From: Candidatus Saccharimonadota bacterium
Lineage (GTDB): Bacteria; Patescibacteriota; Saccharimonadia; Saccharimonadales; JAQGHD01
Direction of reading: 5' to 3'
DNA: 52,582 nucleotides
Assembly (NCBI GenBank): GCA_028288965.1
Contig: JAQGHD010000027.1
Span: 1-52,582, forward strand
In this document: one piece after another, positions 11,432 to 33,337 of the stretch
Position numbering within the stretch: the stretch's first letter is position 1
Layout of the letters: each line of letters begins with the position of its first letter
Program-made: the position numbers and the translations under genes
Notes under the pieces: model-generated
The model's database searches: none
The model's input: only the letters and a program-made list of their open reading frames with translations
What the model was told of the DNA's origin: nothing

Positions 11432-11442
11432 TTCATGCCTCC

Positions 11443-12114: not shown

Positions 12115-12139
12115 GATTGTCTCCTTCTCTGTTACATAG

Positions 12140-12209: not shown

Positions 12210-12263
12210 TTTTATTTGATTTAATGTTGTAAGGAGTAATAAACTTAATGAAAGGGGGGGATC

Positions 12264-13223: not shown

Positions 13224-13226
13224 GTT

Positions 13227-13529: not shown

Positions 13530-13613
13530 AGCTCACTCCCTTTTAGCTTGTACTGACCAATTTTAGTCTCGTGCTTGCAGCCCAGATAGGAAAAAATTCG
13601 CCCTCACGAGCGG

Positions 13614-14315: not shown

Positions 14316-14318
14316 ACA

Positions 14319-16244
14319 CTATTCCCAAATAGCGGTATTATACAGATCAGAAGGCATGCGCCAATCGCCCCGCGGGCTGAGCGCCACACTGCCAACTTTG
14401 GCACCATCGGGCAGGCTTGAGCGCTTAAATTGACTGAAGGCAAAGCGCTTATAAAATACCATTAACCACTTATTGATTTCCTCTGGCTGGTACACTCCTT
14501 CAAAGGCTTGGTTGGCCAAAAAACGTATTTTAGCCGGCTCATCGCCCCAACGAATAAGATAGTACAAAAAAAAGTCGTGCAGCTCGTACGGGCCAATAAT
14601 ATCCTCAGTTTTTTGATCAATCTCGCCTTTGGCTGCCCGGGTAAGTTCCGGTGAAACGGGTGTATCGAGTATATCGAGCAGTATGTCTCGGGCTTCGGCA
14701 CCAGCTTGATTATCGGTAATATGCCGGACCAAGTGCCGGACCAGTGTTTTAGGCACCCCGGCATTCACGTGGTAGTGACTCATATGGTCGGCGTTAAAGG
14801 TACACCAGCCCAGCGCAATTTCGCTTAAATCACCAGTCCCCAAGTTGATCCCTTGCAGCTGGTTGCCCTTGTTAAAGAGAATTTCGGTTCGTATGCGGGC
14901 CTGGACGTTTTCGTAGGTAACATCTTGGGTTTGGCCATCATGACCAATGGCCTTGTGCATCTGATGAGCCAGTTGATCGATAGGCACGACTTGGTTTGGG
15001 ACGTTGTACAGCTGGGCTAACTTTACCGCGTTATTTTGGGTACGGTCAGAGCTAGCCACACCTGGCATGGTGTAGGTGCGGATTAAGTCTTTGGGTGGCA
15101 CGCCGATGATTTCTGCTGAACGACAGGCGACTAAAAAGGCCAAAGTAGAATCCAGCCCACCGGACAAACCAAGATGTACATACGGCGTTTTGGTGGCTTG
15201 TAGCCGCCCGGCCAAGCCATGAGCTTGAATGTCGATAATCGATTGTAAACGCTCGGCGCGCTCGGTTTCATTTTCCCAGGTGGGCAAGAAGGGGTGGGGA
15301 TTAATATGAGGACTTGGCACAAACTCAGGGGTGCCTACAACCGTTTTGACCACTTGCCAGCCAACTTTATTTACAAAGTTAGTATCGCGCAGCCGATCAT
15401 GTTTTAGGTGGTCAATATCTATGTCTGCTACTCGCAGCCGCTCATCTTTTGTAAATGGTTTACGTTCGGCTAGTAGGCGGCCATTTTCGGCAATTAACTG
15501 GTGCCCACCCATAACCACGTCCATGGTTGATTCGGTCCAATCACTGCCAGCGTAGACGTAGCCGGCCATAAGCTTGGCGGATTGCATAGCCACCAATTGG
15601 CGACGGTAGGCGGCTTTGCCAACCAGCTCGGGTGAGGCTGATAAATTAGCAATTACTAACGCTCCGTGCTGGGCTTGCTGGATGCTGGGGGCTTCGGCTA
15701 CCCAGAGGTCCTCACAGGTTTCGACGCCAATTTTTGCGCCACCAATGTCAAATAGCAATTCCGTGCCAAAGGGCACGTCTTGCTGGCCAACCCTCACCGC
15801 GGTATTAGGCTGCTGCCAGGTTTGGTACCACCGCTTTTCGTAAAATTCACCATAGGTAGGTAGGTTTTGCTTTGGCACAAGGCCTTTTATGTCGCCATCG
15901 GCTAGCACGGCACTACAGTTGTATAATGCGTTGTCCACCTGCAGAGGCAAGCCAACTACCATGGTCGTTTCGCTACCCCGTGTTTGTTCGGCCAACTGTT
16001 GCAGCCCTGTGCGGGCTTGCTTAAGCAAGCTTTGTTGCTGTACAAGATCACCAATGGAATAGCCGGTCAGACTCAGCTCCGGAAAGACTACCAGGGCCAC
16101 GCCTTGAGCGGTAGCCTCTTTATACAACTCGGTGATTCGAGTAGTGTTAGTGGCTACGTCGGCGATGTTAACTTCAGGGCAGGCAGTAGCCACCCGCAGA
16201 TAACTTTCATATGGCTGGAATTCCAATTGTGATAGCGTTTCCAT
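14319..16244 (-). CDS. nadE: Glutamine-dependent NAD+ synthetase
   Basis: Nitrilase domain (FPELSLTGY, PK..LP.Y.EFYEKR, CEDLW) plus synthetase domain (GLSGGLDST, ENVQAR.R, GTGDLSE). Confidence 0.96.
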   Translation of the reverse strand: METLSQLEFQPYESYLRVATACPEVNIADVATNTTRITELYKEATAQGVALVVFPELSLTGYSIGDLVQQQSLLKQARTGLQQLAEQTRGSETTMVVGLPLQVDNALYNCSAVLADGDIKGLVPKQNLPTYGEFYEKRWYQTWQQPNTAVRVGQQDVPFGTELLFDIGGAKIGVETCEDLWVAEAPSIQQAQHGALVIANLSASPELVGKAAYRRQLVAMQSAKLMAGYVYAGSDWTESTMDVVMGGHQLIAENGRLLAERKPFTKDERLRVADIDIDHLKHDRLRDTNFVNKVGWQVVKTVVGTPEFVPSPHINPHPFLPTWENETERAERLQSIIDIQAHGLAGRLQATKTPYVHLGLSGGLDSTLAFLVACRSAEIIGVPPKDLIRTYTMPGVASSDRTQNNAVKLAQLYNVPNQVVPIDQLAHQMHKAIGHDGQTQDVTYENVQARIRTEILFNKGNQLQGINLGTGDLSEIALGWCTFNADHMSHYHVNAGVPKTLVRHLVRHITDNQAGAEARDILLDILDTPVSPELTRAAKGEIDQKTEDIIGPYELHDFFLYYLIRWGDEPAKIRFLANQAFEGVYQPEEINKWLMVFYKRFAFSQFKRSSLPDGAKVGSVALSPRGDWRMPSDLYNTAIWE

Positions 16245-16255
16245 GATAGTTCTCC

Positions 16256-16324
16256 TTAGTGTAAAAAATACATTTACTTATTCTAAAGTAGCAGGTACAA
16301 TAATTAGTGTCAATACCACACTAA
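16256..16324. promoter_or_regulatory. Two NrtR-type operator boxes in the nadE/nadD divergent region
   Basis: TTAGTGT-aaaaaat-ACATTTA (16256-16276) and perfect TTAGTGT-caatacc-ACACTAA (16304-16324). Confidence 0.8.
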
Positions 16325-16337
16325 CAGGAGATTTGAC

Positions 16338-16946
16338 ATGGAAATAGCAATATTTGGCGGCAGTTTCAACCCACCGACTCGAGCCCACGAGGCCGGTGTT
16401 CAGGCCTGTCTTGATCGGCAGGATATTGATGAGGTGTGGCTGATGCCATCTGGCTATCGGGCTGATAAGCCAGGCTTAGTCGATGATCAAGCGCGGCTGG
16501 AAATGCTACAAATTGTTAAGCGCCAGGAGTTTTATGATAATCCTCGGGTAGTCATCTCGGACTTTGAGCTTAGCCTGCCGCGGCCAACCCAAACTTATAA
16601 AACCATGGGGGCGCTGGCCAGGGCCTACCCTGAGCATAGATTTTGGTTTGTCAGTGGGGCTGATACCTATGCCACCATGCAAAACTGGGAAGGTGGCCAC
16701 CAACTAAAGGCCAGCTTGCCTATGTTGCTCATCCCTCGCATTGGTTATGAGTTACCCGAGCCGACCCAGCAGTTGCGCCAACTGGAAGTACTAGAAGATA
16801 TGGTCGATGGCATATCCTCTAGTCAAGTGCGTGAGCGTTTGGCCTTAGGCGGCCCCATTGAGTTCTTGGTCTGCGACGCCATAGCGCGCTACATTGCTGA
16901 AAAAGGTTTATACCTAGCCAAAGGCTCAAAATATGTAAGCATTTAG
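16338..16946 (+). CDS. nadD: Nicotinate-nucleotide adenylyltransferase
   Basis: FGGSFNPPTRAH, GAD....W and ISSSQVR motifs. Confidence 0.9.
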   Translation: MEIAIFGGSFNPPTRAHEAGVQACLDRQDIDEVWLMPSGYRADKPGLVDDQARLEMLQIVKRQEFYDNPRVVISDFELSLPRPTQTYKTMGALARAYPEHRFWFVSGADTYATMQNWEGGHQLKASLPMLLIPRIGYELPEPTQQLRQLEVLEDMVDGISSSQVRERLALGGPIEFLVCDAIARYIAEKGLYLAKGSKYVSI

Positions 16947-18116: not shown

Positions 18117-18474
18117 AATCTTGAGTACTCTACTAGCTGGTCAAAAAGAAGAGCGCGAAGCCGAGTTGTACCGCAATCTTATTCGTCACGAAGCCAAGAT
18201 TGGCGGCCAATTATTTGGCCCCGTATCAAAAGATGGTCGTCGTGAATTCTTTTGCCTAGACGAAAAAACCTGGATTTGGCATGAAGAATGGGTAGATAAC
18301 ACCGGCCAACGTCAAATTCGCACGACGCGTTACGATGTCCGACCTAACGGACTATTAAAAGCCCAAGACGGACAGTATTATCAGAGCGTTTCGCCTAATG
18401 AGGCTGCTCGGTTCCTGCAAGCTGTTCGTTTGTATCACCAGCGCGTTAACGACGAGCTGTACGCCAACGTTTAG
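18106..18474 (+). CDS. Hypothetical protein
   Basis: Globular-looking 122 aa (RREFFCLDEKTWIWHEEW); operon-like overlap. Confidence 0.75.
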   Translation: MIRKILSTLLAGQKEEREAELYRNLIRHEAKIGGQLFGPVSKDGRREFFCLDEKTWIWHEEWVDNTGQRQIRTTRYDVRPNGLLKAQDGQYYQSVSPNEAARFLQAVRLYHQRVNDELYANV

Positions 18475-18484
18475 CTCCGGCGCC

Positions 18485-19627
18485 ATGAAGCAAATATATC
18501 TTGATTACGCGGCAGCTTCGCCGATGGATCCCAGCGTGCTTGCGGTCATGCAACCCTATTTTGCCAGAGCGTTTTATAACCCCTCGGCCACCTACCTCGC
18601 AGCCCGCCAGGTCAAGGCGAATATTGCTGAGGCCCGGGCGCGTGTAGCCCATTGGTTTGGCGCCAAACCAGCTGAAATTATTTTTACGGCTGGCGGTACA
18701 GAGGCTAACAATTTAGCCATTCACGGCATTATGCAGCAATATCCTCAGGCCAATGTGGTGGTCAGTAGCATTGAGCATGAATCAGTCTTAGCGCCGGCTA
18801 AGCAATATGCCTGCAAGGAAGTGGGGGTGGAGCCAGACGGAAGACTAAATCGCGCTGAGCTAAAGACCGTCATTGATGACAAAACGGTGCTGGTAAGTAT
18901 TATGTATGCCAATAACGAGGTGGGCACCATCCAACCCCTAAAAGAAGTTGCCACGTTAGTGGCTGAAATTCGCAACGGCCGCCAAAAATCTGGAAATAGC
19001 CTGCCACTGTTTTTGCACACCGACGCTTGCCAAGCGCCAGCCTACCTAGCTATTCATGCTGCCCGTCTGGGTGTGGACCTTATGACGATCAATGCTGGCA
19101 AAATCTATGGCCCCAAGCAATGCGGGGCGCTGTACGCCAGCGCTCGGGTCCGGCTGCAGCCCCAAATTTTGGGTGGTGGCCAGGAGCGCGGACTGCGCAG
19201 TGGCACGGAAAATGTGGCCAACATTACGGGATTGGCTACAGCTTTAGACTTGGTGCAAAATCGCCGCCAGCAAGAAACGCCTCGCTTGCAGACGTTGCAG
19301 GCATATTTTATTAAGCAGCTCCAAAAGGCTTTGCCGCAAGTTATTATTAACGGTTCCCTAAAACACCGTTTGCCAAATAATGTGCACCTTACAATTCCTG
19401 GCGCCGATAACGAACGCCTCATTATGGAGCTGGATGAGCGGGGCATACTCTGCGCGGCCGGCTCAGCCTGTAGCGCCAGTGATGAAGAGCCTTCGCATGT
19501 ACTAAAAGCCATGGGTCTGCCCGACGCTGATACCCAAGCCAGTCTGCGTTTTAGTTTTGGCCATCAAACCACTAAGGCTGACATCGAAAAAACAGTCCGC
19601 GTTTTACACCAACTAACTCGGAGATGA
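18485..19627 (+). CDS. iscS: Cysteine desulfurase (IscS/NifS family)
   Basis: IYLDYAA, FTAGGTEANN, HTDACQ, KIYGPK, GGGQE.GLRSGTEN and GSACS. Confidence 0.93.
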   Translation: MKQIYLDYAAASPMDPSVLAVMQPYFARAFYNPSATYLAARQVKANIAEARARVAHWFGAKPAEIIFTAGGTEANNLAIHGIMQQYPQANVVVSSIEHESVLAPAKQYACKEVGVEPDGRLNRAELKTVIDDKTVLVSIMYANNEVGTIQPLKEVATLVAEIRNGRQKSGNSLPLFLHTDACQAPAYLAIHAARLGVDLMTINAGKIYGPKQCGALYASARVRLQPQILGGGQERGLRSGTENVANITGLATALDLVQNRRQQETPRLQTLQAYFIKQLQKALPQVIINGSLKHRLPNNVHLTIPGADNERLIMELDERGILCAAGSACSASDEEPSHVLKAMGLPDADTQASLRFSFGHQTTKADIEKTVRVLHQLTRR

Positions 19628-19745
19628 CTGTTACTTTCTGTCTCTTCAGAGCGTTTCACGCGGGTTTGCCTAAATCCCAATGGCTTAGGCAAACACCGGT
19701 TGCACTTGGCTGACTCTTGCGATCCAAAAAGTAATAGTCATCTCC
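19620..19745 (+). other. Long intergenic stem-loop at the left edge of the ATPase block
   Basis: GAGATGACTGTTACTTT (19621-19637) pairs with AAAGTAATAGTCATCTC (19728-19744) with one G-T pair; inner GTTTGCCTAA (19664-19673) pairs with TTAGGCAAAC (19685-19694). Confidence 0.7.
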
Positions 19746-19784
19746 AGCTCAGTGATAAAACGCGGTATACTACGAGTGTTTATT

Positions 19785-20621
19785 ATGAACAAAACAAAAA
19801 TCATGACATTTAGACGAGTCAGCGCCTTGCTGGGCCTGGCTTTACTGGTGGCTTTAAGCATTTGGAGGGTGGGATTGGCGCAGTCGGTGGTGCAGAGCTA
19901 TAAAGCTGGTGGCACATTAGAGCGCGGCATGATTATCGGCCTGGACGCTAAAGATCCTACTAAGGTTGCGGCGCTTACCAATGACACCATTAACCGTATG
20001 CATGGGGTTATTGTTGATCCTAACGACGCCCCGGTAGCCTTATCTCAAGCCGGACAAGATGTCTTTGTGGCAACCACTGGGAAGTATGACGTACTGGTGT
20101 CCGATCAAAACGGTGGTCTAAAAGCCGGAGATTATGTCAGTATTTCGAGTGTTGCAGGCATTGGCCAAAAGGCTAATGACCAACAAAATTACGTCATTGG
20201 CAAAGCACTGACTGGCTTTAATGGCAAGACTGGTGTGGTCAGCGTAACACAAGTTAAAAATGGGCAGGGAACCAGCGATGTCTCCATCGGGCGCGTAACG
20301 GTAGATATTGGCGTGTCCAGAAATCCCACTGCCCGTCCCCTTGATCAGAATATACCGACCTTTTTGCGACGAGCCAGTGAAGCGGTGTCTCAAAAACCAG
20401 TTACCGCCCTTAAAATGTACAGCGCTGCCACCATACTGGCCATCACTGTGGCCATCACGGCCAGCATGCTATTTGCCGGTACCCGGAGCAGCATTCTAGC
20501 CATTGGCCGTAACCCTTTAGGCAAGGGTTCTATCATGCGGGGCCTACTAGAGGTCATTATAGGCAGCATTATCATATTTATCGTCGGCCTCTTCATCGCC
20601 TTCCTGCTCTTAAGGCATTAA
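19785..20621 (+). CDS. Secreted-domain protein with a C-terminal ATP synthase subunit-c-like hairpin
   Basis: Signal-peptide-like N-terminus; beta-rich domain (GDYVSISSVAGIGQKA..VIGKAL); two C-terminal TM helices joined by SILAIGRNPLG. Confidence 0.65.
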   Translation: MNKTKIMTFRRVSALLGLALLVALSIWRVGLAQSVVQSYKAGGTLERGMIIGLDAKDPTKVAALTNDTINRMHGVIVDPNDAPVALSQAGQDVFVATTGKYDVLVSDQNGGLKAGDYVSISSVAGIGQKANDQQNYVIGKALTGFNGKTGVVSVTQVKNGQGTSDVSIGRVTVDIGVSRNPTARPLDQNIPTFLRRASEAVSQKPVTALKMYSAATILAITVAITASMLFAGTRSSILAIGRNPLGKGSIMRGLLEVIIGSIIIFIVGLFIAFLLLRH

Positions 20622-20651
20622 GGCTGAGTTTAAGGCGCTATATCGTTAATT

Positions 20652-20695
20652 AAAATGGGGTGACAGTCGGCGGGGAAATCAGTTGACAGGACCCC
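20652..20695. repeat. Palindromic intergenic repeat, copy 2 (degenerate)
   Basis: AAAATGGGGTGACAGTCGGCGGGGAAATCAGTTGACAGGACCCC matches the core of copies 1 and 3. Confidence 0.75.
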
Positions 20696-20769
20696 TTCAT
20701 TTTTGCGATTCAGAGCGTGATTTCATGGTATAGTACTACTGATAAACATAAGCAGGTCAAAGAACAAAC

Positions 20770-21390
20770 ATGCAGTGGTGGGAACTGGCTTTAATCCTCG
20801 GAACTATCTTTGCAGCAACGGCGGCGTTTATTTGGGTCGCTATCAGTCATAGCCATAATCCGGCAAAGCAAAAAAATAACGCTCAGGCCCTTACTGGGGC
20901 CGCCGAAAAAGACGTTGAGCACATCTTTAACGAAGAGTTCCGTGAGGAGTTGCGTAATCGTGGGCGTCTGCACTTTGAAAAAATTATTGGCGAGAATGCC
21001 ATGTTCTTGCAACAAGACTTGCGCCTGACTACTTCGCAATTAAACGACTACATGAAGCAGGAAATTACCCATACGCTACAAGAGGAGTTTGCCAAGTACG
21101 AAGAGTCTATCAGTGATGCCAAGCAACTAGCGCAGCAGGCCATTGAAAAAACTACTACGGCGCTTGACCAGCAGCGCCAGCTGATGAGCCACCAGTTAGA
21201 CCAGCAACTCCAAGACCAAAAGGCCCAAATGTTGGCTCGTTTTGAAGCCAACATGGCCGATATCGTCAACCATTACGTACTGGCGGCGATTGGTAATCAA
21301 ATTGATCTAAGTGATCAGCTGGAATACATCCTAGGCGATCTCGAAACCAATAAGCAAGCCATGATTGAGGACTTACGCCGTGGCGCCTGA
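20770..21390 (+). CDS. F-type ATPase subunit b-like stator protein
   Basis: Single N-terminal TM followed by a long Q/E-rich helix; immediately precedes the delta- and alpha-like genes. Confidence 0.6.
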   Translation: MQWWELALILGTIFAATAAFIWVAISHSHNPAKQKNNAQALTGAAEKDVEHIFNEEFREELRNRGRLHFEKIIGENAMFLQQDLRLTTSQLNDYMKQEITHTLQEEFAKYEESISDAKQLAQQAIEKTTTALDQQRQLMSHQLDQQLQDQKAQMLARFEANMADIVNHYVLAAIGNQIDLSDQLEYILGDLETNKQAMIEDLRRGA

Positions 21391-21877
21391 GGCAAGTCAA
21401 ATCCAATTGCCGATTAACCTGATAGATACTACTGACATTAATCGGGCCAAGCGGGAAGTAGAAGCCCTGGCTGAATTTTTAGATCAAGCTAGCATTCGCG
21501 AGCCCGGTAAGCAGCCGGCTATGCCGCGGACGAGTAAAACCTTAGAAGAACTGGCTCGGATCAACAAGCTTAACTTACTTATTGCCGATCAACGCCAGCA
21601 GGTACTCTCTTTTTTAGAGTATTTACAGCAAAAAGCTCCCAATATTCACATTAGTTTTGCTACCGATCCATCGGCAGCATTCTTGGGTAAAATTGTCCAG
21701 TGGTTTAGGGCTGAGGTTCACCCCCACACGCTTGTGCACGTTGGCTTGCAGCCCAGCATAGCTGCCGGTTGTATTGTCCGCACGCCCAATAAATATTTTG
21801 ATTTAAGCTTGCGGCAGCATTTCAACCAAAATCGTCAGTCATTACTGGATAGTCTGGAAGGCTTAAAGAGTGAGTGA
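21380..21877 (+). CDS. atpH: F-type ATPase subunit delta-like
   Basis: C-terminal [23 protein letters not shown] resembles the delta/OSCP signature; the GTG start overlaps the upstream gene's end. Confidence 0.7.
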
Positions 21878-23293
21878 TAATCGCCACTTTGACCAGTTAG
21901 TAAAAAGCGGCCGGCCGGTGGGTGAGGTCGTGAGCGTCGATCGCTTCATTGTCCGGCTTAAGGGACTTCAGCCGATTAACACCCACTCCTTAATTATGTT
22001 TGAAGATGGCAGCAAGGGTTTTGTGCGCTATATTCAGGAAGATTTTGTGGTGGTGTTGCACCTTGGTAGCAAACCGTTGCCGATTGGCATGCTGGCGGTC
22101 TTACAGCACAGTGAACTGGTTAGCAAAGTGGGCAAGGATTTTATAGGCCGAGTAATTTCGGTTACCGGTGAGCCGCTTGATGGCAAGGGCCCGATTGCTG
22201 CCGATGATGTCTGGCCGGTGTTTAATCCGGCGCCAAATTTATACGAGCGCGAACAGCTAAATGATCAGCTGGAAACGGGCATTGCGGTCATTGATTCACT
22301 CTTCCCGATTGTCCGCGGCCAGCGTATAGCTATTTTAGGCGACAGTAAGTCCGGTAAAAGCACTATGGCTACCCAACTAGCTATGAATCAAACCAAGGGC
22401 GATATGGTGGTGGTTTACGCCTTAATTGCCAAGCGCCGTAGTGATGTTGACGCACTTCTGAATAACCTAGAAGAAAGTGGGGCTATTAAAAACTCAATTG
22501 TCGTGGTGGCGACCATGTTTGAGTCATTAGTTATGAGCTATTTGGCACCGTACGTGGCCTGCTCGCTGGCTGAGTATTTGTGGCAAAAGCACGATCAAGA
22601 TACGACCATTATTTATGACGATTTGACCAGCCACGCTCACGTATACCGAGAAATATCACTCCTTACCGGCAGTAGCCCGGGGCGCGATTCATACCCAGGC
22701 GATATGTTTTACGCACACTCTTCGTTACTCGAGCGAGCTGGCCGGTTGAGCCGCAATCACAAGACCTTGACCAGCTTGCCTCTAGTTTTGGCCAGTGGCG
22801 GCGATATTACGGCTTATTTGCCGACCAACATCATGTCTATTACCGACGGGCAATGGATCCTGGATATGGAAGTCTTTCGTAACGGTTTGCGACCGGCCCT
22901 CAATATTGGGTTGAGTGTGACTCGTGTTGGTGGACGGGGACATAACGATCGCCAGAAAAAGCTCAATGGCCAAGCGTTTAAGGTGTACGGTGCCTATCAG
23001 CAAGCCCAAGAGTTTGCTCACTTTGGTTCGGAGCTGGCTTTGGCGGCGCGCAAAGATCTAGAAACTGGTAAGCGCATGAATGAGTTATTTAATCAGCCGG
23101 CTACCGAACGCTTTTCAGTGTTTGACCAGCAGCTAATGCTCGACATTGTGCTGAACGTGGCCGATGGTGAGAGCCTGGACATGCAAGCCATGAAAACAGC
23201 CGTGAAAGATCTGGCTGCCCAAGCCAAAAGCGATGATGATTTTGATAAAATTCGCGATGCCTTAAAGGGCAAAAGCCTTATGGAGCTCAAGAA

Positions 23294-23297
<4 letters not shown>
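21870..23297 (+). CDS. atpA: F1-like ATPase subunit alpha (divergent)
   Basis: [19 protein letters not shown]-loop [40 protein letters not shown] and SVTRVGG. Confidence 0.9.
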
Positions 23298-25454
<2,157 letters not shown>

Positions 25455-25455
<1 letters not shown>

Positions 25456-25775
25456 TGGCTGCGCACCAAGATGCCAGTACGGGGGCAATTTCGGCCGAGT
25501 CGGTGGCTGCCAAACCGGCCGATGCCCGGCATCCGGTTATGCACGTTAAGGTCTACTCGCCGTTTAAAACCTATTTTGATGAGTCAGCTGACAGTATTTC
25601 GGCAGTTAACGCTACAGGCCCGTTTGACATATTACCTAGGCACCACAACTTTATGACGCTGTTAAGCGCCGGAGAGTTGATTATTCGCCAGGGCACTGTC
25701 CAGCACAAGATTCGCATCTCGCGCGGGGTCATGCACGTCAAAGCTAACCAGGTTATCGTTTTCCTCGACGTTTGA
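25455..25775 (+). CDS. atpC: F1-like ATPase subunit epsilon, N-terminal beta-sandwich only
   Basis: VKVYSP, GPFDILPRH, L..GEL and ISRGVMHVKANQVIVF; ends without the C-terminal helices. Confidence 0.8.
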
Positions 25776-25824
25776 TACTAAAGGGCTTGTCCTTATTTTC
25801 GCTCCAGCAGTGCACTATACGAGT

Positions 25825-26035
25825 GGACCTGTGGTCCAGCTCGTGGCGCTAGCAACCCTGCCGGATCAAAAACAAGGACCCGCCAGTTATGTGTCGATGC
25901 ACAATGATGCCTCTTTGCTGTCAAACGTATTTGGCGGGCAGGTCTTTTGGTAAACGAGTGGGTAAGCTAGCGCCACAGGCTTCGCGCTAGCGAACCTGTA
26001 AAGCGCCCACGAGAGACCAAAAGCCTGCCCGCCAA
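25825..26035. ncRNA. Candidate structured RNA / overlapping alternative hairpins between convergent genes
   Basis: Pairings GACCTG/CAGGTC, TGGTCC/GGATCA, CCCGCCA/TGGCGGG, GTGGCGCTAGC/GCTAGCGCCAC and a 20-bp arm 25931-25951/26016-26035. Confidence 0.4.
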
Positions 26036-26042
26036 GAACACC

Positions 26043-27050
26043 TTAGTCGAGGACGACGTAGTCGAAGACGTAGTTGGTGCCGGCGGCTGGGTTAGTGGCG
26101 CAGACGCTAAAGTTGGTGACAGAGCGATTGGTGTAGTAACTGAGGCTGCCGGTATTGCTATTGACCGGACTAATGATAACGTGCGGCGTGCCATTAAACT
26201 TTTGCGTAAAGTTGACGGTAATAAAACAGCCGGCCGCGGGACTACTGCCAGTGTTAATACTAACAGTGCCGGCCGTATCGGTGCCACTGACGCCGGCCGT
26301 GCCTCCGCCACCTAGTGCCGAGCCGCCGGAGCTGCTTGGTGAGGCACCCGTAGGATCTATGTGGTGACCCAGCTGCAAATCACCAGTTAGCTGCAATACG
26401 CCGACCGTAATTTGCGGGGCCGACAACGGGCCGGTGAATGAACCGCCACTGCTTACAGATAGACTTTTTTGAACTGTGAGCGTGCCTTGCACCGAAGCGT
26501 TGCCAGCAATCGCCAGGCTGTTTATTTGTACTTGGTCGAAACTACTTTTTCCAGATACGGTGATGCCGGGCAGGCTCAAAGCGCCACCTACGCGAATAGT
26601 ACCGGCTACGTCAAGGCTGTCACGCACCAGGACCGTACCGGCAAAGACCGCGTTTGATTCAATATTAAGCGTTTGCTTGGGGTCGCCTACCTTGGATGTG
26701 CTGCTTTTTAAATCTTTTAAAGCTTTATCGGTGAGCGTTTGATCGGATGCGGTGGTAGCAGTTTTTCGGTTATAAAGTACGGCTACACTAATAGCAACTC
26801 CGGCTATGACAATGAGCAAAATAAAGGCCAAGAAGTAAATATTTAATTTACCAAAAAAGTGTTTGACGCCATCTTTACGTGATTTTTTGCTGGGTTTCTG
26901 GTCCTTGTCGGTTTTTTCGGTGGTCAGGTTAGTGTCGGCCGTGGCGTCAAGTGACAGTCCAGACTCTAGCGATCCAGAATGGGGGGCTTCAGCTGGCTGA
27001 TCTGGCTTTTTGTCGGCGGCTGGCTCGGCAGTTTTATTAGAAGAATCCAT
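26043..27050 (-). CDS. Membrane-anchored fibre-like surface protein
   Basis: Disordered N-terminus, one TM, short-period beta repeats (LDVAGT/IRVGGA/LAIAGN/ASVQGT/LTVQKS), Gly/Ser linker, C-terminal VNFTQKFNGTPHVIISP domain. Confidence 0.7.
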   Translation of the reverse strand: MDSSNKTAEPAADKKPDQPAEAPHSGSLESGLSLDATADTNLTTEKTDKDQKPSKKSRKDGVKHFFGKLNIYFLAFILLIVIAGVAISVAVLYNRKTATTASDQTLTDKALKDLKSSTSKVGDPKQTLNIESNAVFAGTVLVRDSLDVAGTIRVGGALSLPGITVSGKSSFDQVQINSLAIAGNASVQGTLTVQKSLSVSSGGSFTGPLSAPQITVGVLQLTGDLQLGHHIDPTGASPSSSGGSALGGGGTAGVSGTDTAGTVSINTGSSPAAGCFITVNFTQKFNGTPHVIISPVNSNTGSLSYYTNRSVTNFSVCATNPAAGTNYVFDYVVLD

Positions 27051-27179
27051 TACGTCCTAGGGGTCTGCACCTACTCTTATATTTCTCTTATCATACTATG
27101 CATTAGCCGTAAGCGTAAACGCCTATAAGCATAGGCATATTTGCGGTTTTATGGGCCTTTGAGGCAGAATATATAGATA

Positions 27180-27914
27180 ATGAGGCTACCAAAACACAAA
27201 CTCAGATCAGTAAGCTACGTGTTGTCAGCGTTGTTATTCGTACTGGCCTCGCCAGTATTTGCTCAATCGAGCTCCTCAAATTACTCCACGAATGAGTATT
27301 ATTTTGGTACCGGTGGTGGAGATAGTTCTTCGGCTAATTATTCGGGTTGTCAATCATCCGGAGCAGCAGGTGTCGGTAGCACCAACAGTAGTAATTTTTC
27401 AGCCCAAGGCGGCTTTTGTACGTCCGACGCACCCTATTTAGAAATGTCCGTCACTAACTCTAACGTCGATCTTGGCTACTTAAGTAAGATTGCCGCCACT
27501 ACCAGTACTGGAACATTCACCGTTAAGGCTTATTTGGCCTCCGGCTACGTGGTTACCAATGCCTCTGACCCGCCGTCCAACGGGTCGCATAACCTTACCG
27601 GACTGACTTCACCCTCGGCATCGAGCGTGGGTGCCGAGCAGTTTGGCATCAATCTAGTGCACAATACCAGCCCGGCTACCTTTGGCACGAACCCGGTACA
27701 AGTACCGGATTCGACCTTTAGCTTTGGTGCCGCTTCCACCGGCTATGACACGGCTAATCTGTATAAATATGTTAAGGGCGACATTGTTGCTAGCTCTACC
27801 AAGAGCTCCGGCGAAACAGATTATACCATTGCCTATTTATTTAATATCAGCAGCCTGACGCCGGCTGGGCAGTATACGTTTAACCATACGATTGTGGTAA
27901 CGGCTACGTACTGA
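27180..27914 (+). CDS. Secreted WxL/pilin-like protein 1
   Basis: Signal peptide (VFA-Q), EQFGINL, C-terminal strand TPAGQYTFNHTIVVTATY. Confidence 0.65.
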   Translation: MRLPKHKLRSVSYVLSALLFVLASPVFAQSSSSNYSTNEYYFGTGGGDSSSANYSGCQSSGAAGVGSTNSSNFSAQGGFCTSDAPYLEMSVTNSNVDLGYLSKIAATTSTGTFTVKAYLASGYVVTNASDPPSNGSHNLTGLTSPSASSVGAEQFGINLVHNTSPATFGTNPVQVPDSTFSFGAASTGYDTANLYKYVKGDIVASSTKSSGETDYTIAYLFNISSLTPAGQYTFNHTIVVTATY

Positions 27915-28037
27915 TAAAAAGTTTATCCACACCCTGTCTACTAGATAATTGGCAAAATTGCGTGAAATATTGCACTTAAGCTTTGCCCTATGCTACACTC
28001 CTCTCATATAGCATAAGCACATCGGTGCGCTTGAAAT

Positions 28038-29144
28038 GTGAGACAAAGAGTGCGGCAACGCCACAAAACACTACGTTTTAGACTAGGATTAATGATTGCC
28101 GGCTTGTTGGTGGCCAACATTCTGGCGGTACTTGTAAGTGTTTCTAAAGCCCAGGCTTACACCTTAATAACCAGTCGTAGTATTAAAATGAGTAACTCGG
28201 CTATCGGCGGCGTAGCGATCCATCACGTTGCTTTCACAACAGCCGCTACGTACAACGTGGCCTCCGTTGAAATTCAGTATTGTACTGACCCATTCATTGG
28301 CGCCGCGTGTACAGCGCCGACGGGATTAGATGTTAATGAAGCCACCCCGCTGACCATTAACAACCAGGTCGGTATTACTGGCATGACGCTTCATGCCATC
28401 ACCTCCACCAACCGGGTGGTCTTAACTCGCTCCACAAGCAGTATTACCTCTGCCACAGCCGTATCGTTTGACCTAGGAACTGGCGTCGGCAACGATGGCA
28501 TCAAGAACCCCACGACGCTCGGAACTTTTTACGCCCGGATTGGCACCTTCGCGTCCACCGATGGAACGGGCGCCCAACAGGATGCCGGTGGCGTGGCCCT
28601 GAGTACCGCCAACCAGTTGACCATTACTGCTAAAGTTCAGGAAACCTTGACTTTCTGTGTCTATGTTACGGGTGTAAACTGCGCCGGTGGTACCGGTACA
28701 GCCTTGGCGCTTGGTGACGTTAACGGCGTGCTCAGTAGCACCACCACCGATTACACCGGTTCTGCCAAGTTTGGCCTAGCTTCTAATGCCCCAGCGGTGG
28801 TTGTGCGCATGAAGGGCGCTACACTTACGGCCGGGACGTTTACGATAACCCAGCAAGGCACCACTTGTACGGCCGATTCGACCACGTCCTCGGTTGAACA
28901 ATTTGGAGTGCGAGTAACACCAGGCACCAATGTTACAGCCGATCCGGTCTATGCTTGCGGCAGTGGACTGCATGCTTTTGACGGCGCTAACACGGTTGGC
29001 ACCTATGGAGATGATATTGCCAGCACTGCGGTCCCCCTGGATGAAGTACAGAGCACCATGGAATTCAACGCCAAAGCGGCTACTACTACCGAAGCTTCGG
29101 TTTACACAACCACGCTAACGTTTATTGCCACAGGTACATTCTAA
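28038..29144 (+). CDS. Secreted two-domain WxL/pilin-like protein 2
   Basis: Signal peptide (AQA-Y), Cys pairs, EQFGV, C-terminal YTTTLTFIATGTF; paralog of the next gene. Confidence 0.65.
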   Translation: MRQRVRQRHKTLRFRLGLMIAGLLVANILAVLVSVSKAQAYTLITSRSIKMSNSAIGGVAIHHVAFTTAATYNVASVEIQYCTDPFIGAACTAPTGLDVNEATPLTINNQVGITGMTLHAITSTNRVVLTRSTSSITSATAVSFDLGTGVGNDGIKNPTTLGTFYARIGTFASTDGTGAQQDAGGVALSTANQLTITAKVQETLTFCVYVTGVNCAGGTGTALALGDVNGVLSSTTTDYTGSAKFGLASNAPAVVVRMKGATLTAGTFTITQQGTTCTADSTTSSVEQFGVRVTPGTNVTADPVYACGSGLHAFDGANTVGTYGDDIASTAVPLDEVQSTMEFNAKAATTTEASVYTTTLTFIATGTF

Positions 29145-29163
29145 CTCTAGAATATAAGCAGTT

Positions 29164-30207
29164 ATGAAAGCTCGCACACGCGGCCGTCTTTGCCTCATCG
29201 CCCTGATACTTTTGGTAGTGATCAGTTGGATGGCGCGCCCAAGTGCGGCTCTCAGGCTCGATAATCGCCGCATAGAAATCACCTCCAGCGCGGTGGGGCA
29301 AACAAACGTCAATTACGATGTCTTTTTTGACTTGACTACCGCTGGCACAATGGGGTCCGTAATGATTGAGTTTTGTAGCAATGATCCATATCCCAACACG
29401 CCCTGTACCCCGCCAACCAATTTTGATGATTCAGCGGCAATCTTAGTGCAACAGACAGGTGAAACGGGCTTTACTATCCACTCAAGTTCCACCAGCAATA
29501 AACTGGTGTTGAGCCGTATCCCAGTCGCAGCTGTTGCGGGTTCGGTATCCTATGCATTCAATGGCATTACCAACCCAACTACGCTTGGCACCTACTACGT
29601 TCGCTTGCTAACGTTCGCTAGCAACGATGCCACGGGCCCACCTATAGATATTGGCGGTATTGCTATGACAACCGTCCAGCAGCTCAATATCAGTGCCGAG
29701 GTGCCGCCGTATTTAGAGTTTTGTTCGGCAGTCATTATTAGCAGCCAAGATTGTAGCAATACCAGTGGCAATTTTACCGATCTTGGTAATTTAGTGCCCA
29801 GTAACACCGGTACCATGACTTCGCAATTTTTAGGGGCCACTAATGCTATTTTTGGCTACAATGTCTATATAAATGGCACCACCTTGACCGCTGGAAATAA
29901 TGTGATTCCGGCGTTGAGTACGCCAGCTCCTTCACAAAAAGGCAATAGTCAGTTTGGCATAAATCTACACGCCAATTCTGCTCCGCCAATCGGTCAGGCA
30001 CTAAGCGGCAGTGGCAACGCCTCCGCCGACGCGAGCTATAATTTAGCCAATTTGTTTACGTTCAACGATGGTGATACGCTGGCCTCTACCAGCGGGGCTA
30101 GTGATTTTAATAAATTTACCGTCAGTTATATTGTTAACGTTAACACCAAGCAGCCACCGGGACAGTACGTCACCACACTGACTTATATTTGTCTAGCCAG
30201 CTTCTAG
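29164..30207 (+). CDS. Secreted two-domain WxL/pilin-like protein 3
   Basis: Signal peptide; GITNPTTLGTYYVR (cf. GIKNPTTLGTFYAR in protein 2); SQFGINL; C-terminal PPGQYVTTLTYICLASF. Confidence 0.65.
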   Translation: MKARTRGRLCLIALILLVVISWMARPSAALRLDNRRIEITSSAVGQTNVNYDVFFDLTTAGTMGSVMIEFCSNDPYPNTPCTPPTNFDDSAAILVQQTGETGFTIHSSSTSNKLVLSRIPVAAVAGSVSYAFNGITNPTTLGTYYVRLLTFASNDATGPPIDIGGIAMTTVQQLNISAEVPPYLEFCSAVIISSQDCSNTSGNFTDLGNLVPSNTGTMTSQFLGATNAIFGYNVYINGTTLTAGNNVIPALSTPAPSQKGNSQFGINLHANSAPPIGQALSGSGNASADASYNLANLFTFNDGDTLASTSGASDFNKFTVSYIVNVNTKQPPGQYVTTLTYICLASF

Positions 30208-30282
30208 TGGACGCCTAAGCTTGTCACGGCTTGCAATAATCTGTTACGATACACGGAGCATTTACGGGTGCAACAGAGTTTT

Positions 30283-31257
30283 ATGAAAAAACGCATACTG
30301 GCAACCATTGCCCTCCTTACGCTCATCATAGTGAGCGCTCAACGTCTCAGTTTGGCCCAATCGGCCCCAAGCGGCAGCGGTTTTAGAATCTCGCCCGTTC
30401 GCCAAGAGCTCAGCCTTGCGCCAGGTACTAGTCGAACCGTTGAGATCGCTGTCGAAAACATCACCAGCGCACCAATTACTGCTCACGCCATTGTTAATGA
30501 CTTTGTGGCTGACAGCAGCGAAAAAGGTGAGCCAAAACTAGTGCTTGACACCTCTACACCACCAGGCAGCACAAGTTTTCGTGGACTAGTTAAAAGTATT
30601 CCAGACCTTACCTTAGCCGTTAAAGAACGCAAAATTATCAAGGTATCTCTTACCGTGCCACCAAATGGCGCCTCCGGCGGCTACTACGGAGCGATTCGCT
30701 TTGCCCCGGTGAGTACCGACAATCAAAATCAAGTTTCATTGTCAGCCAGCGTGGGCACACTGTATCTTATTACCGTGCCTGGCAACATTACAGAAAAATT
30801 GGGCATAGAGAGTTTGAGCGTCAGCCGTCATGGCAAGGCGGGCTCGTTCTTTTTGACCTCGCCGGACAATGTATCGGTTCGCTTAAAAAACACCGGTAAC
30901 ATTCATGTAAAGCCATTTGGCAAAATTGCCATCAAGAATAGTCAGGGCAAGTCCGTAAGTGATGTAGAGGTGAATCCAGCCCCCACGCAAGATGCCCGGG
31001 GTAATGTTTTACCCAACAGCATTCGGCGTTTTGACACAGCCGTGAAATCTCATTTTGGCCTTGGCCATTACAGCGTAACTGCCAACATTGCATATGGCAG
31101 CAGCGGCTCAGCGCTCCTGAGCGCTAAAACCAGTTTTTGGATTGTGCCTTTGTGGCTCATAATAACGGTGGGCGTATTGCTCGTGCTTATAATCCTAGTG
31201 ATTGTCTTCTTACTGTTTCGACGTAAAAAGCGGCGCTACAAGCAACGAACCCTTTAA
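30283..31257 (+). CDS. DUF916/DUF3324-like (WxL-interacting, chaperone-like) membrane protein
   Basis: Signal peptide, ISPVR.EL.L.PG, VPPN..SGGYYGAI, LKNTGNIHVKP.G, VLPNSIR; C-terminal TM plus basic tail. Confidence 0.75.
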   Translation: MKKRILATIALLTLIIVSAQRLSLAQSAPSGSGFRISPVRQELSLAPGTSRTVEIAVENITSAPITAHAIVNDFVADSSEKGEPKLVLDTSTPPGSTSFRGLVKSIPDLTLAVKERKIIKVSLTVPPNGASGGYYGAIRFAPVSTDNQNQVSLSASVGTLYLITVPGNITEKLGIESLSVSRHGKAGSFFLTSPDNVSVRLKNTGNIHVKPFGKIAIKNSQGKSVSDVEVNPAPTQDARGNVLPNSIRRFDTAVKSHFGLGHYSVTANIAYGSSGSALLSAKTSFWIVPLWLIITVGVLLVLIILVIVFLLFRRKKRRYKQRTL

Positions 31258-31276
31258 AATAAAACTATAAATTTGT

Positions 31277-32152
31277 ATGAATCGTTTTAGACTATCAAAA
31301 TCAGTCTGGTTGCTGAGCGTGTTACTGGGGTTACTGCTCAGCTTGTCGGCCACGCCAGTGCTGGCCGTAACCAATCCTCAATCTGGGCCAATTGGTTTAC
31401 AGGGCACGGTTGCTTCGCCACCGCCAACGCAGGCTGCCGTCATTAGTTTGCCCAGGGCCGGACAGGTCTTTACGGCTATTCCTATAACTGTCAGTGGCCT
31501 ATGCCCTAAAGGCACTGTAGTTAAAATTTTTAAGAATGGTGTATTTGCTGGTTCGGCTGACTGTGCCAATGGCAGCTTTTCGTTGCAGATAGATTTATTC
31601 AGCGGCCAGAATGATCTGATAGCTCGGGTCTACGACTCTTTGGATCAAGCTGGTCCTGATTCGACCGTAGTAACGGTTACCTTCCAAGATGCCACCTATG
31701 GTACTTTTGGCAATCATGTAAGTTTAACCAGTAGTTACGCCAAAAGAGGCGCCAATCCTGGCCAAACACTCAGTTGGCCAATAATTTTAAGTGGCGGCAC
31801 GGCACCGTATGCCATTAGTGTCGATTGGGGCGATGGCAAGGCACCGGATCTTATTAGCCTGGCAGCGCCTGGTACTTTTACGCCAACGCACGTCTACGCC
31901 GCTGCCGGCGTTTATAACGTTATTGTTAAGGCCACTGATAAAAACGGCGTTGCCGCCTTTCTGCAGCTGGTGGCTATTGCTAATGGCGCTGTTGGCCAAA
32001 CCTCCTCCCAGGCTGGATCCACCAATGCGGCGACTAAGGCCAATAAGTTTCTGTGGGGGCCGGCCATACTGCTGGTGCCACTTACGGTCACGGCCTATTT
32101 CCTAGGTCGTCGCTCCCAACTCCAAACACTCAAAAAACGCTTCAATCAGTAG
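31277..32152 (+). CDS. Membrane-anchored Ig/PKD-domain surface protein
   Basis: Signal peptide, Ig-like domain, PKD motif VDWGDG...HVYAAAGVYNV.V.ATD, C-terminal TM. Confidence 0.75.
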   Translation: MNRFRLSKSVWLLSVLLGLLLSLSATPVLAVTNPQSGPIGLQGTVASPPPTQAAVISLPRAGQVFTAIPITVSGLCPKGTVVKIFKNGVFAGSADCANGSFSLQIDLFSGQNDLIARVYDSLDQAGPDSTVVTVTFQDATYGTFGNHVSLTSSYAKRGANPGQTLSWPIILSGGTAPYAISVDWGDGKAPDLISLAAPGTFTPTHVYAAAGVYNVIVKATDKNGVAAFLQLVAIANGAVGQTSSQAGSTNAATKANKFLWGPAILLVPLTVTAYFLGRRSQLQTLKKRFNQ

Positions 32153-32264
32153 TTTCTAGCCAGCCGCCCGGGTGAGGCTCCAAAGGACTGGGGTCCTGCC
32201 AACTGGTCCGCCCCGCCAGTTGGCACCCCATTTTATATGGCCCTTGCCAATGACTGGCTAGAAA
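32153..32264. repeat. Palindromic intergenic repeat, copy 3 (inverted) inside an 11-bp inverted repeat
   Basis: The reverse complement of ~32178-32234 reads AAAATGGGGTGCCAACTGGCGGGGCGGACCAGTTGGCAGGACCCCAGTCCTTTGGAG; TTTCTAGCCAG (32153-32163) pairs with CTGGCTAGAAA (32254-32264). Confidence 0.85.
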
Positions 32265-32296
32265 AACAGAGGTGAAAATGCTATACTTCACCGACT

Positions 32297-33337
32297 ATGG
32301 CCAAAAAAGTCTATGTTGGGATGAGTGGCGGCGTTGATAGCTCCGTTACGGCAGCTTTGCTTAAAGAGCAGGGATACATCGTCACGGGCGTCTACATGAA
32401 AAACTGGACCCAAGACTTTCCGGGTTTTGAGTGCCCTTGGAAGCAAGACTACCAAGATGCCAAGCGAGTAGCCGTGCGCCTAGGCATCGATTTTAAGGTG
32501 TTTGATTTTCAAAAAGAGTACAAACAGAAAGTGGTGGATTACATGATTGCCGAGTATCAGGCCGGCCGCACGCCCAACCCGGACATTATGTGTAATCAAG
32601 AGGTCAAGTTTAAGCTGTTTTTAGAGACGGCCCTAGCTGAAGGTGCCGAGTTGATAGCCACCGGCCATTACGCTCGCACCCGTGACGGCCAGCTGCTGAC
32701 GGCTCGTAATGCTGCCAAAGACCAAACCTACTTTCTGTACCGGGTTACCGAGGCGGCCTTGCAAAAAACGCTGTTCCCAATTGGTGAATTCAAAACTAAA
32801 GCCGAAGTTCGCGCTCTAGCTAAAAAGTTTGGCCTGTCTACCGCCGCCAAAAAGGATAGTCAGGGTATCTGTTTTGTCGGCGAAATCGGCATAAAAGAGT
32901 TTTTGCAAAACTACGTTACGACTGAACCCGGCGCCATTATTGATCAACAGGGCAAAGTAATTGGCGAGCATGAAGGAGCCATTTTCTACACCATTGGCCA
33001 GCGCCATGGCCTCAATGTGGGCGGCGGACTGCCCTACTACGTGGTTGGCAAGGATATGAAAAAGAATGAAGTCTACGTGACCACTGATCTGAATGACGCC
33101 AAGTTGTGGCACACCGAAATTCCGGTAACCGATATTCACTGGATCAATGGGCCGCCCATCAACCAACCGCTCCAAGTCCGCACTCGTTACCGCGGCCCGC
33201 TGCTGGATTGCAGCATCGACCGGCAGGGCAAGGCTTGGGTCATAAAGACAAAAGACGAAGTTCGGGCCATTGCTCCCGGACAATCAGCTGTAATTTATAG
33301 CGGCCAACAGGTCTTAGGCGGCGGGGTTATCACCTGA
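32297..33337 (+). CDS. mnmA: tRNA 2-thiouridine(34) synthase
   Basis: MSGGVDSS, TPNPDIMCN, ATGHY, KDQTYFL, DSQGICF and PGQSAV. Confidence 0.97.
   Translation: MAKKVYVGMSGGVDSSVTAALLKEQGYIVTGVYMKNWTQDFPGFECPWKQDYQDAKRVAVRLGIDFKVFDFQKEYKQKVVDYMIAEYQAGRTPNPDIMCNQEVKFKLFLETALAEGAELIATGHYARTRDGQLLTARNAAKDQTYFLYRVTEAALQKTLFPIGEFKTKAEVRALAKKFGLSTAAKKDSQGICFVGEIGIKEFLQNYVTTEPGAIIDQQGKVIGEHEGAIFYTIGQRHGLNVGGGLPYYVVGKDMKKNEVYVTTDLNDAKLWHTEIPVTDIHWINGPPINQPLQVRTRYRGPLLDCSIDRQGKAWVIKTKDEVRAIAPGQSAVIYSGQQVLGGGVIT

Follow-up and report, generated by a model that had tools for sequence, protein, structure and literature searches.

An accessory F1-like ATPase operon without subunit a adjoins a Pam pilus operon between iscS and mnmA in a Saccharimonadota genome

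Here, we describe a gene block between iscS and mnmA in a Candidatus Saccharimonadota bacterium (GCA_028288965.1, order Saccharimonadales). The window analyzed is contig JAQGHD010000027.1 over its whole 52,582 nucleotides, contig C3 of a 0.92-Mb, 30-contig genome that we label G000 and whose size fits the candidate phyla radiation (CPR). According to the open reading frame listing and matches to Pfam and NCBIfam, 13 genes fill positions 19752 to 32152, of which seven make up an F1-type ATPase operon and six encode secreted or membrane-anchored beta-rich proteins. An earlier note on this DNA had described the interval as containing nothing except F1-like ATPase genes and beta-rich surface proteins, and all 13 genes agree with that description. 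The block consists of three modules: an F1-like ATPase operon, the single gene TFL335, and a Pam pilus operon. The features of the block and its flanks are as follows (TM, transmembrane).

18398..19627, plus strand: cysteine desulfurase, IscS/NifS-like, left flank (PF00266, 206.6 bits; sub-threshold NCBIfam matches to NifS and IscS models).
19620..19745, plus strand: long imperfect hairpin in the iscS-Lc spacer (inverted repeat; fold of -57.4 kcal/mol, z -7.4; no Rfam match).
19752..20621, plus strand: Lc, 289 amino acids, with a predicted signal/TM helix, outward beta domain, and c-subunit-like helical hairpin (structure model with a mean predicted local distance difference test score [pLDDT] of 87.9).
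20652..20695, plus strand: short copy of a six-copy structured genomic repeat in the spacer between Lc and the b-like gene (repeat comparison).
20770..21390, plus strand: putative b-like stalk protein, 206 amino acids (one N-terminal TM helix, a long helical region, and a conserved operon position; matches neither Pfam nor NCBIfam families).
21365..21877, plus strand: delta/OSCP-like subunit (PF00213, 24.5 bits, cut-off 22.3).
21870..23297, plus strand: F1-like alpha (PF00006, 232.7 bits; NF009884, 400.1 bits, below its cut-off of 554; P-loop and Arg-finger motifs).
23294..24151, plus strand: F1-like gamma (PF00231, 105.1 bits).
24148..25455, plus strand: F1-like beta, catalytic (TIGR01039, 439 bits, below its cut-off of 462.85; Walker A and catalytic Glu motifs, no DELSEED-like motif).
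25455..25775, plus strand: epsilon, 106 amino acids, N-terminal beta-sandwich alone (PF02823 over residues 29 to 104).
25927..26038, both strands: strong hairpin in the gap where the epsilon and TFL335 genes converge (-66 kcal/mol, z -9.4 on the plus strand; -63.6 kcal/mol, z -7.4 on the minus strand).
26043..27050, minus strand: TFL335, with a predicted cytoplasmic tail, TM helix, beta-helix stalk, and C-terminal beta-sandwich; adhesin- or tail-fiber-like.
27180..27914, plus strand: PamT, tip pilin (NF058579, 290 bits, cut-off 240).
28038..29144, plus strand: Pam pilin (NF058581, 75 bits, cut-off 55).
29164..30207, plus strand: Pam pilin (NF058581, 159.4 bits, cut-off 55).
30268..31257, plus strand: PamC/PamD-like membrane-anchored chaperone candidate, 329 amino acids (signal sequence, TM helix at the C terminus; WxLIP_PGBD, 26.3 bits, narrowly under the cut-off of 27.3; conserved place before PamR).
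31277..32152, plus strand: PamR, RbmA-like anchor/terminator (NF058578, 399.1 bits, cut-off 300).
32190..32234, minus strand: short, hairpin-forming copy of the six-copy structured repeat in the PamR-mnmA spacer (fold of 32188 to 32235, z -2.8).
32297..33337, plus strand: MnmA, right flank (NF001138, 433.3 bits, cut-off 284).

The ATPase in the window is not the only F-type enzyme encoded by this genome. Four genes match PF00006, one matches PF00119 (subunit a), and one matches PF00137 (subunit c). Subunits a and c both belong to a complete canonical F1Fo operon on contig C25, and this is the sole PF00119 match in the genome, leaving the window operon without a subunit a. Relative to their C25 counterparts, the window alpha, beta, and gamma proteins are 34%, 45%, and 20% identical, respectively. 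NCBIfam F0F1 models score best for alpha, beta, gamma, delta, and epsilon, and the window alpha, beta, and gamma fall below every NCBIfam cut-off, including those of the alternate N-ATPase and mycoplasma F1-like models. The nearest solved relatives of the window beta are ordinary bacterial F1 betas (363 to 377 bits), and the beta of the Mycoplasma mobile G1-ATPase (9io5_A) scores 288 bits. In a quick LG+G4 tree of 74 betas with 8 alphas as the outgroup, the Saccharimonadia betas fall into separate F1-like and canonical clades; the deep branching order of this tree is unsettled because it includes no references from outside the CPR. We conclude that the window ATPase is an F1-like accessory machine distinct from the housekeeping enzyme.

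All 39 F1-like betas that we collected retain the Walker A motif and the GER.RE motif with the catalytic Glu. A DELSEED-like motif is present in none of these 39, compared with 14 of 18 canonical betas, and the window epsilon (106 amino acids, versus 146 for the canonical one) has no C-terminal domain. Since the catalytic site is intact and both the epsilon C-terminal domain and the DELSEED-like motif are missing, the complex looks built for ATP hydrolysis. Like the canonical F1Fo operon (atpBEFHAGDC), the window operon has the order b-delta-alpha-gamma-beta-epsilon, its catalytic motifs are intact, and its delta/OSCP, gamma, and epsilon N-domain proteins fall into recognized families; it differs in having no subunit a, no DELSEED-like motif, a short epsilon, and, in place of c, the 289-residue carboxylate-less fusion Lc.

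Two known kinds of additional F-type ATPase invite comparison. N-ATPases possess a and c subunits. The alternate F1F0 (N-ATPase) operons resemble the window operon as second F-type operons in one genome and differ from it in that the window operon has neither a nor c and scores far under the family models (TIGR03305, 408.2 versus a cut-off of 752; TIGR03324, 333 versus 750.5). Mycoplasma F1-like ATPases (the MSC_0618/0619 type and the M. mobile G1-ATPase) are closer in kind, being, in the accessible parts of the reports, extra F1-derived ATPases beside a genuine F1Fo, without Fo a and c, and encoded with membrane or surface proteins (PMC3369863, PMC8406192, 10.1101/2024.06.11.597861). This is a resemblance in working principle and not family membership: the window genes score 389.6 versus 570 and 270.5 versus 520 bits against the MSC_0618/0619 models and 352.8 versus 850 and 306.4 versus 600 bits against the MMOB1660/1670 models, and the CPR operon differs in retaining b-like and delta genes and in adding the Lc fusion.

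Three-dimensional modeling of Lc with AlphaFold2 on 32 orthologues predicted an N-terminal signal-like helix, a beta domain (residues 47 to 190), a short helix, and a helical hairpin (residues 219 to 253 and 255 to 288). A G-R-N-P turn is invariant both in this hairpin and in canonical c, which in this lineage has an E directly after the turn plus an invariant Glu in helix 2. The membrane helices of Lc contain no acidic residue (D or E) in any of the 32 sequences; the classical ion site is therefore absent. Alignment of Lc with 29 canonical CPR c subunits by hhalign gave a probability of 73.8% and an E value of 2.9e-5 over 50 columns (from helix 1 through the loop into the beginning of helix 2), and the top structural matches of the hairpin include c subunits (2x2v_A, Z 10.4, root mean square deviation [rmsd] of 1.3 Å over 69 residues; 6tmh_H, rmsd of 1.2 Å over 71 residues). 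When 10 genomes without subunit a were searched with Pfam ATP-synt_C (PF00137), two of the three sub-threshold matches, the only two located in an ATPase operon, were Lc hairpins (G108, E 3.5e-4; G042, E 0.013), and the third, in a 735-residue frame of G039, was at chance level (E 0.53). With modest confidence, these sequence and model comparisons suggest that the Lc hairpin is homologous to, or derived from, a c subunit.

The modeled fold of the predicted outward domain of Lc is that of phage head-decoration or cement proteins and a fragment of phi29 gp12: the best matches include the phi29 gp12 C-terminal fragment (3gqh_A, Z 12.7), the HFTV1 capsid-portal interface chain (8qsy_JI, Z 12.0), and a Pam3 capsid chain (8hdt_G, Foldseek E 1.8e-5), and Pfam XM1_gp53_minor_capsid matches 5 of the 32 Lc sequences (best E 1.2e-5). 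Unlike the phage proteins, the domain in Lc is fused to a membrane hairpin within a cellular ATPase operon. Domains of this type recur within giant CPR surface proteins. One such protein in the same genome (1,524 amino acids, G000:C15:47395-51969) carries two CBM_4_9 carbohydrate-binding domains and an Lc-outward-like domain at residues 1146 to 1254, so that the domain appears to be a shared building block of these giants. A profile search with Lc returned 720 cluster representatives out of 1.84 billion at E <= 1e-30; its relatives are all annotated as "hypothetical protein" with no Pfam domain, and the profile had no match among PDB sequences at E <= 10.

We surveyed 201 genomes of the class, 73 from the window's order (besides the window's own) and 127 from other orders, and fetched 38 F1-like loci. 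Lc lies within the operon at 31 of the 38 loci. Subunit a occurs in 98 of the 201 genomes, always as a single copy and always in a canonical operon. By family, it was found in 0 of 8 genomes of f19, 0 of 14 of f25, 0 of 2 of f27, 0 of 3 of f29, and 1 of 32 of f21, all families that carry the F1-like operon. For these families, the F1-like operon is the only F-type ATPase.

Several loci vary the arrangement. Four loci of family f21 (L031, L032, L041, and L042) have a minimal Lc-alpha-gamma-beta-epsilon operon; BLAST detects no b-like gene at any of the four and a delta-like open reading frame at L032 alone; at L041, alpha begins 7 nucleotides after the end of Lc, and Peptidase_S74 fiber-like genes follow each minimal operon. 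Two genomes have two F1-like operons each: G039 (L031 and L032, both minimal) and G003 (L041, minimal, and L040, with b-like and delta-like open reading frames). A third kind of alpha-gamma-beta-epsilon cluster occurs at L022 (G077:C1:98000-117999), its alpha and beta being 40% and 51% identical to the canonical proteins and its gamma 25% identical to the F1-like one; G077 also has the canonical operon and a Pam cluster ~90 kb away.

Judged from these sequences, the F1-like complex cannot work as an ion-coupled enzyme of the normal kind. It might still be a working ATP synthase or pump if an a-like subunit had diverged beyond recognition or were borrowed from the canonical operon. The best scores of alpha, beta, gamma, delta, and epsilon against F0F1 models and the ordinary F1 betas as closest solved relatives would fit such an enzyme. 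However, PF00119 was found neither in the class families for which this is the sole F-type ATPase nor in five of five genomes from other classes, no Lc sequence has the membrane carboxylate, and a further gene would not fit into the operon, where 148 nucleotides separate Lc from the b-like gene. We regard an ion-translocating role as highly unlikely.

Beyond the class, in a phylum sample of 301 genomes, full-length Lc is present in many other classes. At 17 of 20 such loci, Lc is followed, after ~1 kb, by alpha, gamma, beta, and epsilon in that order. The five other-class genomes noted above as having no subunit a all carry the Lc operon, and four of the five hold only one alpha/beta pair, the F1-like one. 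The Pam pilin domain, by comparison, scored above its cut-off in 27 of the 301 genomes, and among 17 other-class genomes with both Lc and F1-like genes, a single one had a Pam pilin match, which was weak and 75 kb away. The ATPase is thus much more widespread than Pam. On our best reading, the ATPase is also the older of the two, and its core partner is Lc and not the pilus.

What most often adjoins the operon in the class sample is a gene for a fiber-like or giant surface protein. The model of TFL335 (pLDDT of 68.8 overall and above 90 in the C-terminal domain) contains a beta-helix like that of a Caldicellulosiruptor adhesin domain (4wa0_A, Z 13.4, rmsd of 1.9 over 111 residues) and of bactofilin (Z 13.2), followed by a confidently modeled C-terminal beta-sandwich whose matches to lectin/CBM-like and tailspike proteins are weak. 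TFL335 is best read as a predicted membrane-anchored beta-helix fiber or adhesin. A complex prediction with TFL335 residues 96 to 335 and Lc residues 40 to 215 gave no answer (score 0.00) and speaks neither for nor against contact. At 25 of the 38 class loci, a TFL-like, Peptidase_S74 tail-fiber-like, Kelch giant, or other giant gene lies directly beside the operon: 18 are TFL335-like, 4 encode large Peptidase_S74 proteins (all in f21), 2 encode Kelch giants (one Pfam confirmed), and 1 encodes a 1,611-residue protein. Tail-fiber-like and giant surface proteins are the commonest neighbors of the F1-like operon in the class sample; such a neighbor is found at 3 of 17 loci in other classes. In one genome of another class, G391, a 2,803-residue protein directly after epsilon combines a Peptidase_S74 domain with, after it, an Lc-ecto-like domain. 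The 1,611-residue protein belongs to G018, where it directly follows epsilon at the place taken by TFL/Pam genes in relatives (L008, G018:C1:596600-616599, positions 3239 to 11258); this locus also has three genes with prepilin-type (type IV minor pilin-like) N termini.

The third module encodes PamT, two pilins, the chaperone-like protein, and PamR. PamT and PamR pass equivalog cut-offs, and the Pam pilin C-terminal domain (NF058581) is found above its cut-off in three window genes (155.5, 75, and 159.4 bits). The 329-residue protein, by its signal sequence and TM topology, is a candidate for the PapD/FimC-like chaperone that a Pam system would have. WxL/Csc surface clusters exist in Firmicutes. 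WxL-like features in the pilins had been remarked on when the sequence was first read, and the chaperone-like protein scores close to the Pfam cut-off for the DUF916/WxLIP peptidoglycan-binding domain. Pam operons may be related to those clusters. Chaperone-usher pili carry out donor-strand exchange without ATP.

The Pam pilus of Ca. Mycosynbacter amalyticus has been solved, and its components have been named PamA to PamE, PamT, and PamR (Troman et al., bioRxiv 2026, PMC13278184; what follows refers to the main text of that preprint). Cryo-electron microscopy revealed a donor-strand exchange filament for PamA and PamB alone, and the proposed assembly route is Sec export and then donor-strand exchange on chaperones anchored in the membrane; its authors found no retraction machinery, and its main text does not contain the words WxL, DUF916, or paralog. 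The same work reports that, across CPR lineages, genes for ATP synthase subunits and a tail-fiber-like gene colocalize with the pam operon, which was interpreted as a link to ATP production. Neither the surface-fiber half of the block nor the Pam/ATPase adjacency is new, therefore, since PMC13278184 reports both. The window operon resembles that of M. amalyticus in PamT, PamR, the pilin C-terminal domain, a candidate chaperone-like gene, and the ATP synthase and tail-fiber-like genes alongside; it differs as a minimal set, with one chaperone-like protein and two pilins in place of PamC and PamD plus PamA, PamB, and PamE.

With strong pilin matches as the criterion for Pam, 33 genomes of the window's order have both the F1-like ATPase and Pam, 8 have the ATPase alone, 2 have Pam alone, and 30 have neither; the corresponding figures in other orders are 43, 36, 7, and 41. 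These and the adjacency counts come from related genomes that are not phylogenetically independent, and they overstate the association. Among the 33 order genomes with both, gamma and a Pam pilin lie within ~15 kb in 27 and on different contigs in 4, with positions unlisted for 2. This synteny spans families f2, f3, f5, f7, f8, f10, f12 to f15, and f17 of the order and two families outside it, f19 (G008, G014, and G035) and f36 (G061 and G148); G061 has two F1-like operons, both adjoining TFL and Pam-like genes. Also outside the order, three genomes have the two clusters apart on the same contig (G130, 420 kb; G043, 180 kb; G039), and five assemblies of <= 10 contigs have them on different contigs. 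Both clusters are absent together inside genera g2, g6, and g38. The earlier note had suggested looking for relatives with iscS directly next to mnmA, and in all five of the order genomes examined that lack both clusters, the block is absent and the two genes are ~0.6 kb apart.

That note had proposed that the ATPase and fiber genes form one module, a view that independent and unlinked distribution of the two clusters would contradict. Synteny in 27 of 33 genomes and joint absence in 5 of 5 bear out the association within the order, but the separated clusters of G130, G043, G039, and the five assemblies do not fit a single module, and the distribution is independent in part, the ATPase occurring without a strong Pam match in 8 + 36 genomes and Pam without the ATPase in 9. 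In a stricter version of the proposal, the F1-like ATPase would directly power the Pam pilus, by rotation, by retraction, or by anchoring and release via an Lc crown, as one appendage system. Arguing for this are the conserved adjacency in the order and in f19 and f36, the duplicated arrangement of G061, the co-occurrence counts, the loss of the whole block in the five relatives, and the vacant retraction role in the published account (PMC13278184, main text). Arguing against it are the unlinked clusters in G130, G043, G039, and others, the class genomes with either cluster alone, and the single weak and distant Pam match among 17 Lc/F1-like genomes of other classes. Moreover, kinship inflates the counts, joint loss of adjacent genes may be a single deletion, and donor-strand exchange, as proposed for Pam in that preprint, needs no ATP. 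We consider direct coupling quite unlikely.

At the opposite extreme, the iscS-mnmA spacer could be a tolerated insertion site in which unrelated modules have accumulated, their adjacency being functionally meaningless. The slot does hold varied cargo: Pam without the ATPase in G043, the ATPase alone in six order genomes, and, in G018, the ATPase with the 1,611-residue protein and the prepilin-type genes. The ATPase and Pam clusters of the window are also, on the face of it, separate transcription units, as the strong hairpin after epsilon and TFL335 on the opposite strand between them suggest. However, synteny is kept across many families of the order and two outside it, and the F1-like-TFL-Pam set is duplicated in G061; purely historical adjacency is, in our judgment, unlikely.

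The long hairpins that the earlier note had placed at both block ends are real (z -7.4 at 19620 to 19745; z -2.8 at 32188 to 32235), but they do not mark the block, because further long inverted repeats occur at 42006 to 42149, 14501 to 14631, and 16238 to 16344. The right-end hairpin and 20652 to 20695 are oppositely oriented short copies of one structured repeat with six copies, at 3219 to 3303 (+), 20652 to 20695 (+), and 32190 to 32234 (-) in the window and at ~21670 to 21754 on C19, 3781 to 3864 on C25, and ~13110 to 13194 on C28. The ends of the repeat are conserved, and its middle stem covaries among copies; the four long copies add an apical hairpin with a conserved loop, and each is flanked by its own 13- to 14-nucleotide inverted repeat. 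A search of region 3100 to 3420 against Rfam gave chance-level rows alone and no family, and an Rfam scan of 19400 to 32500 gave no match at E <= 1. It may represent a small RNA, a family of terminators, or a miniature mobile element. We considered whether the inverted repeats at 20651 and 32235 are the ends of a mobile element and rejected this, since both are copies of this genome-wide repeat. The hairpin at 25927 to 26038 looks like a bidirectional terminator. The upstream motif said to be shared by the ATPase and fiber genes did not hold up: none specific to both clusters was seen, merely the six-copy repeat and -10-like boxes. Promoter-like consensus sites (16, versus 15.5 in shuffles) and terminator-like sites (18 versus 15.7) show no excess.

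The remaining genes of the window are housekeeping genes (nicotinamide adenine dinucleotide [NAD] salvage, TatD, alaS, ruvX, mltG, obg, and uvrA). Positions 9363 to 16946 form a compact NAD salvage and regulation cluster that encodes a NUDIX protein, NAPRTase, an isochorismatase-type nicotinamidase, ADP-ribosylglycohydrolase, an NrtR-like regulator, NAD synthase, and a NadD-like transferase.

We favor, at about an even chance, a reading of the block as three neighboring modules that serve the cell surface, among them an ATP-burning surface machine built on Lc, with Pam as a frequent but not obligatory neighbor. It builds on the gene content, the paralogy with the canonical operon, the lack of subunit a, of a canonical c, and of the membrane carboxylate, the preserved catalytic motifs, and the distribution. 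The alpha3beta3-gamma-epsilon motor would hydrolyze ATP; the b-like and delta stalk proteins would fix it to the membrane, and it would be coupled to Lc. Exported by its signal sequence, Lc would present its phage-decoration-like beta domain outside the cell. As Lc has no carboxylate and the operon no subunit a, the work done is probably mechanical or conformational work at the surface and not ion pumping or ATP synthesis. The Pam pilus would be built via Sec export and donor-strand exchange with no ATPase for polymerization. In the window's order, the three modules would travel together between iscS and mnmA, probably because all of them serve host attachment.

A more specific version, which we put forward tentatively and consider unlikely, makes Lc an ion-free c-ring-like rotor with an outside crown of decoration-like domains. 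The F1-like head would turn or flex this crown, which would hold trimeric tail-fiber-like adhesins (TFL335, Peptidase_S74 fibers, and giant CBM or Kelch proteins) and perhaps, in Saccharimonadales, Pam bases. Ring formation by Lc, its contact with gamma and epsilon, its rotation, the identity of the load, and contact with TFL335 or Pam are what we infer for such a rotor.

Several observations weigh against the surface-machine reading and its rotor version. Pfam ATP-synt_C matched 1 of 32 Lc sequences (E 0.22), and the hairpin is otherwise without a significant Pfam family; no Lc reaches the PF00137 cut-off of 24, the best being the G108 Lc at 20.9 bits, and the window Lc has no match. A hidden Markov model of the Lc hairpin run over all open reading frames of the genome found canonical c as its top non-self match, yet at E 0.18, and helical hairpins are a common fold. 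In six order genomes (G018, G038, G047, G062, G095, and G104), the genes from b-like to epsilon lie between iscS and mnmA with no Lc in the operon and with no TFL or Pam in that slot. A diverged Lc paralogue is found elsewhere, beside proteins of 1,745 to 1,982 residues, in four of the six; a search of G104 gave none, and the search did not include G095. The F1 part can thus persist without an adjacent Lc. No fiber or giant gene adjoins the operon at 13 of 38 class loci and 14 of 17 other-class loci. Finally, because order-level synteny is strong (27 of 33), a closer coupling with Pam than the favored reading allows is possible.

CPR bacteria have no respiratory chains, yet they retain "ATP synthase" genes. 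A genetics paper (Cell 2023), in its accessible text, notes that the predicted F-type ATP synthase of one Saccharibacterium is dispensable and asks why it is retained. Literature searches found no publication on a second F1-like ATPase that lacks subunit a, or on a c-fusion protein, in CPR, although such operons may be shown in Figure 5 or the supplements of PMC13278184 or in Supplementary Figure S3 of an October 2026 rotary-ATPase preprint (10.64898/2026.10.01.756066); the accessible text of the latter mentions unusual CPR beta-subunit neighborhoods in its methods, without a description of the present one. An F1-like ATPase with neither a nor the c carboxylate is encoded in many CPR genomes, and in some it is the sole F-type ATPase. 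Metabolic reconstructions that score such genes as ATP synthase are wrong for those genomes. The published link of the Pam neighborhood to ATP production (PMC13278184, main text) needs revising; in the window, the neighboring ATPase genes belong to a second ATPase without subunit a. A new surface use of the F1 motor becomes testable in cultivable Saccharibacteria. If the ion-free Lc crown rotor were correct, a large share of CPR "ATP synthases" would be ATP-driven rotary host-attachment machines and not energy-conserving enzymes.

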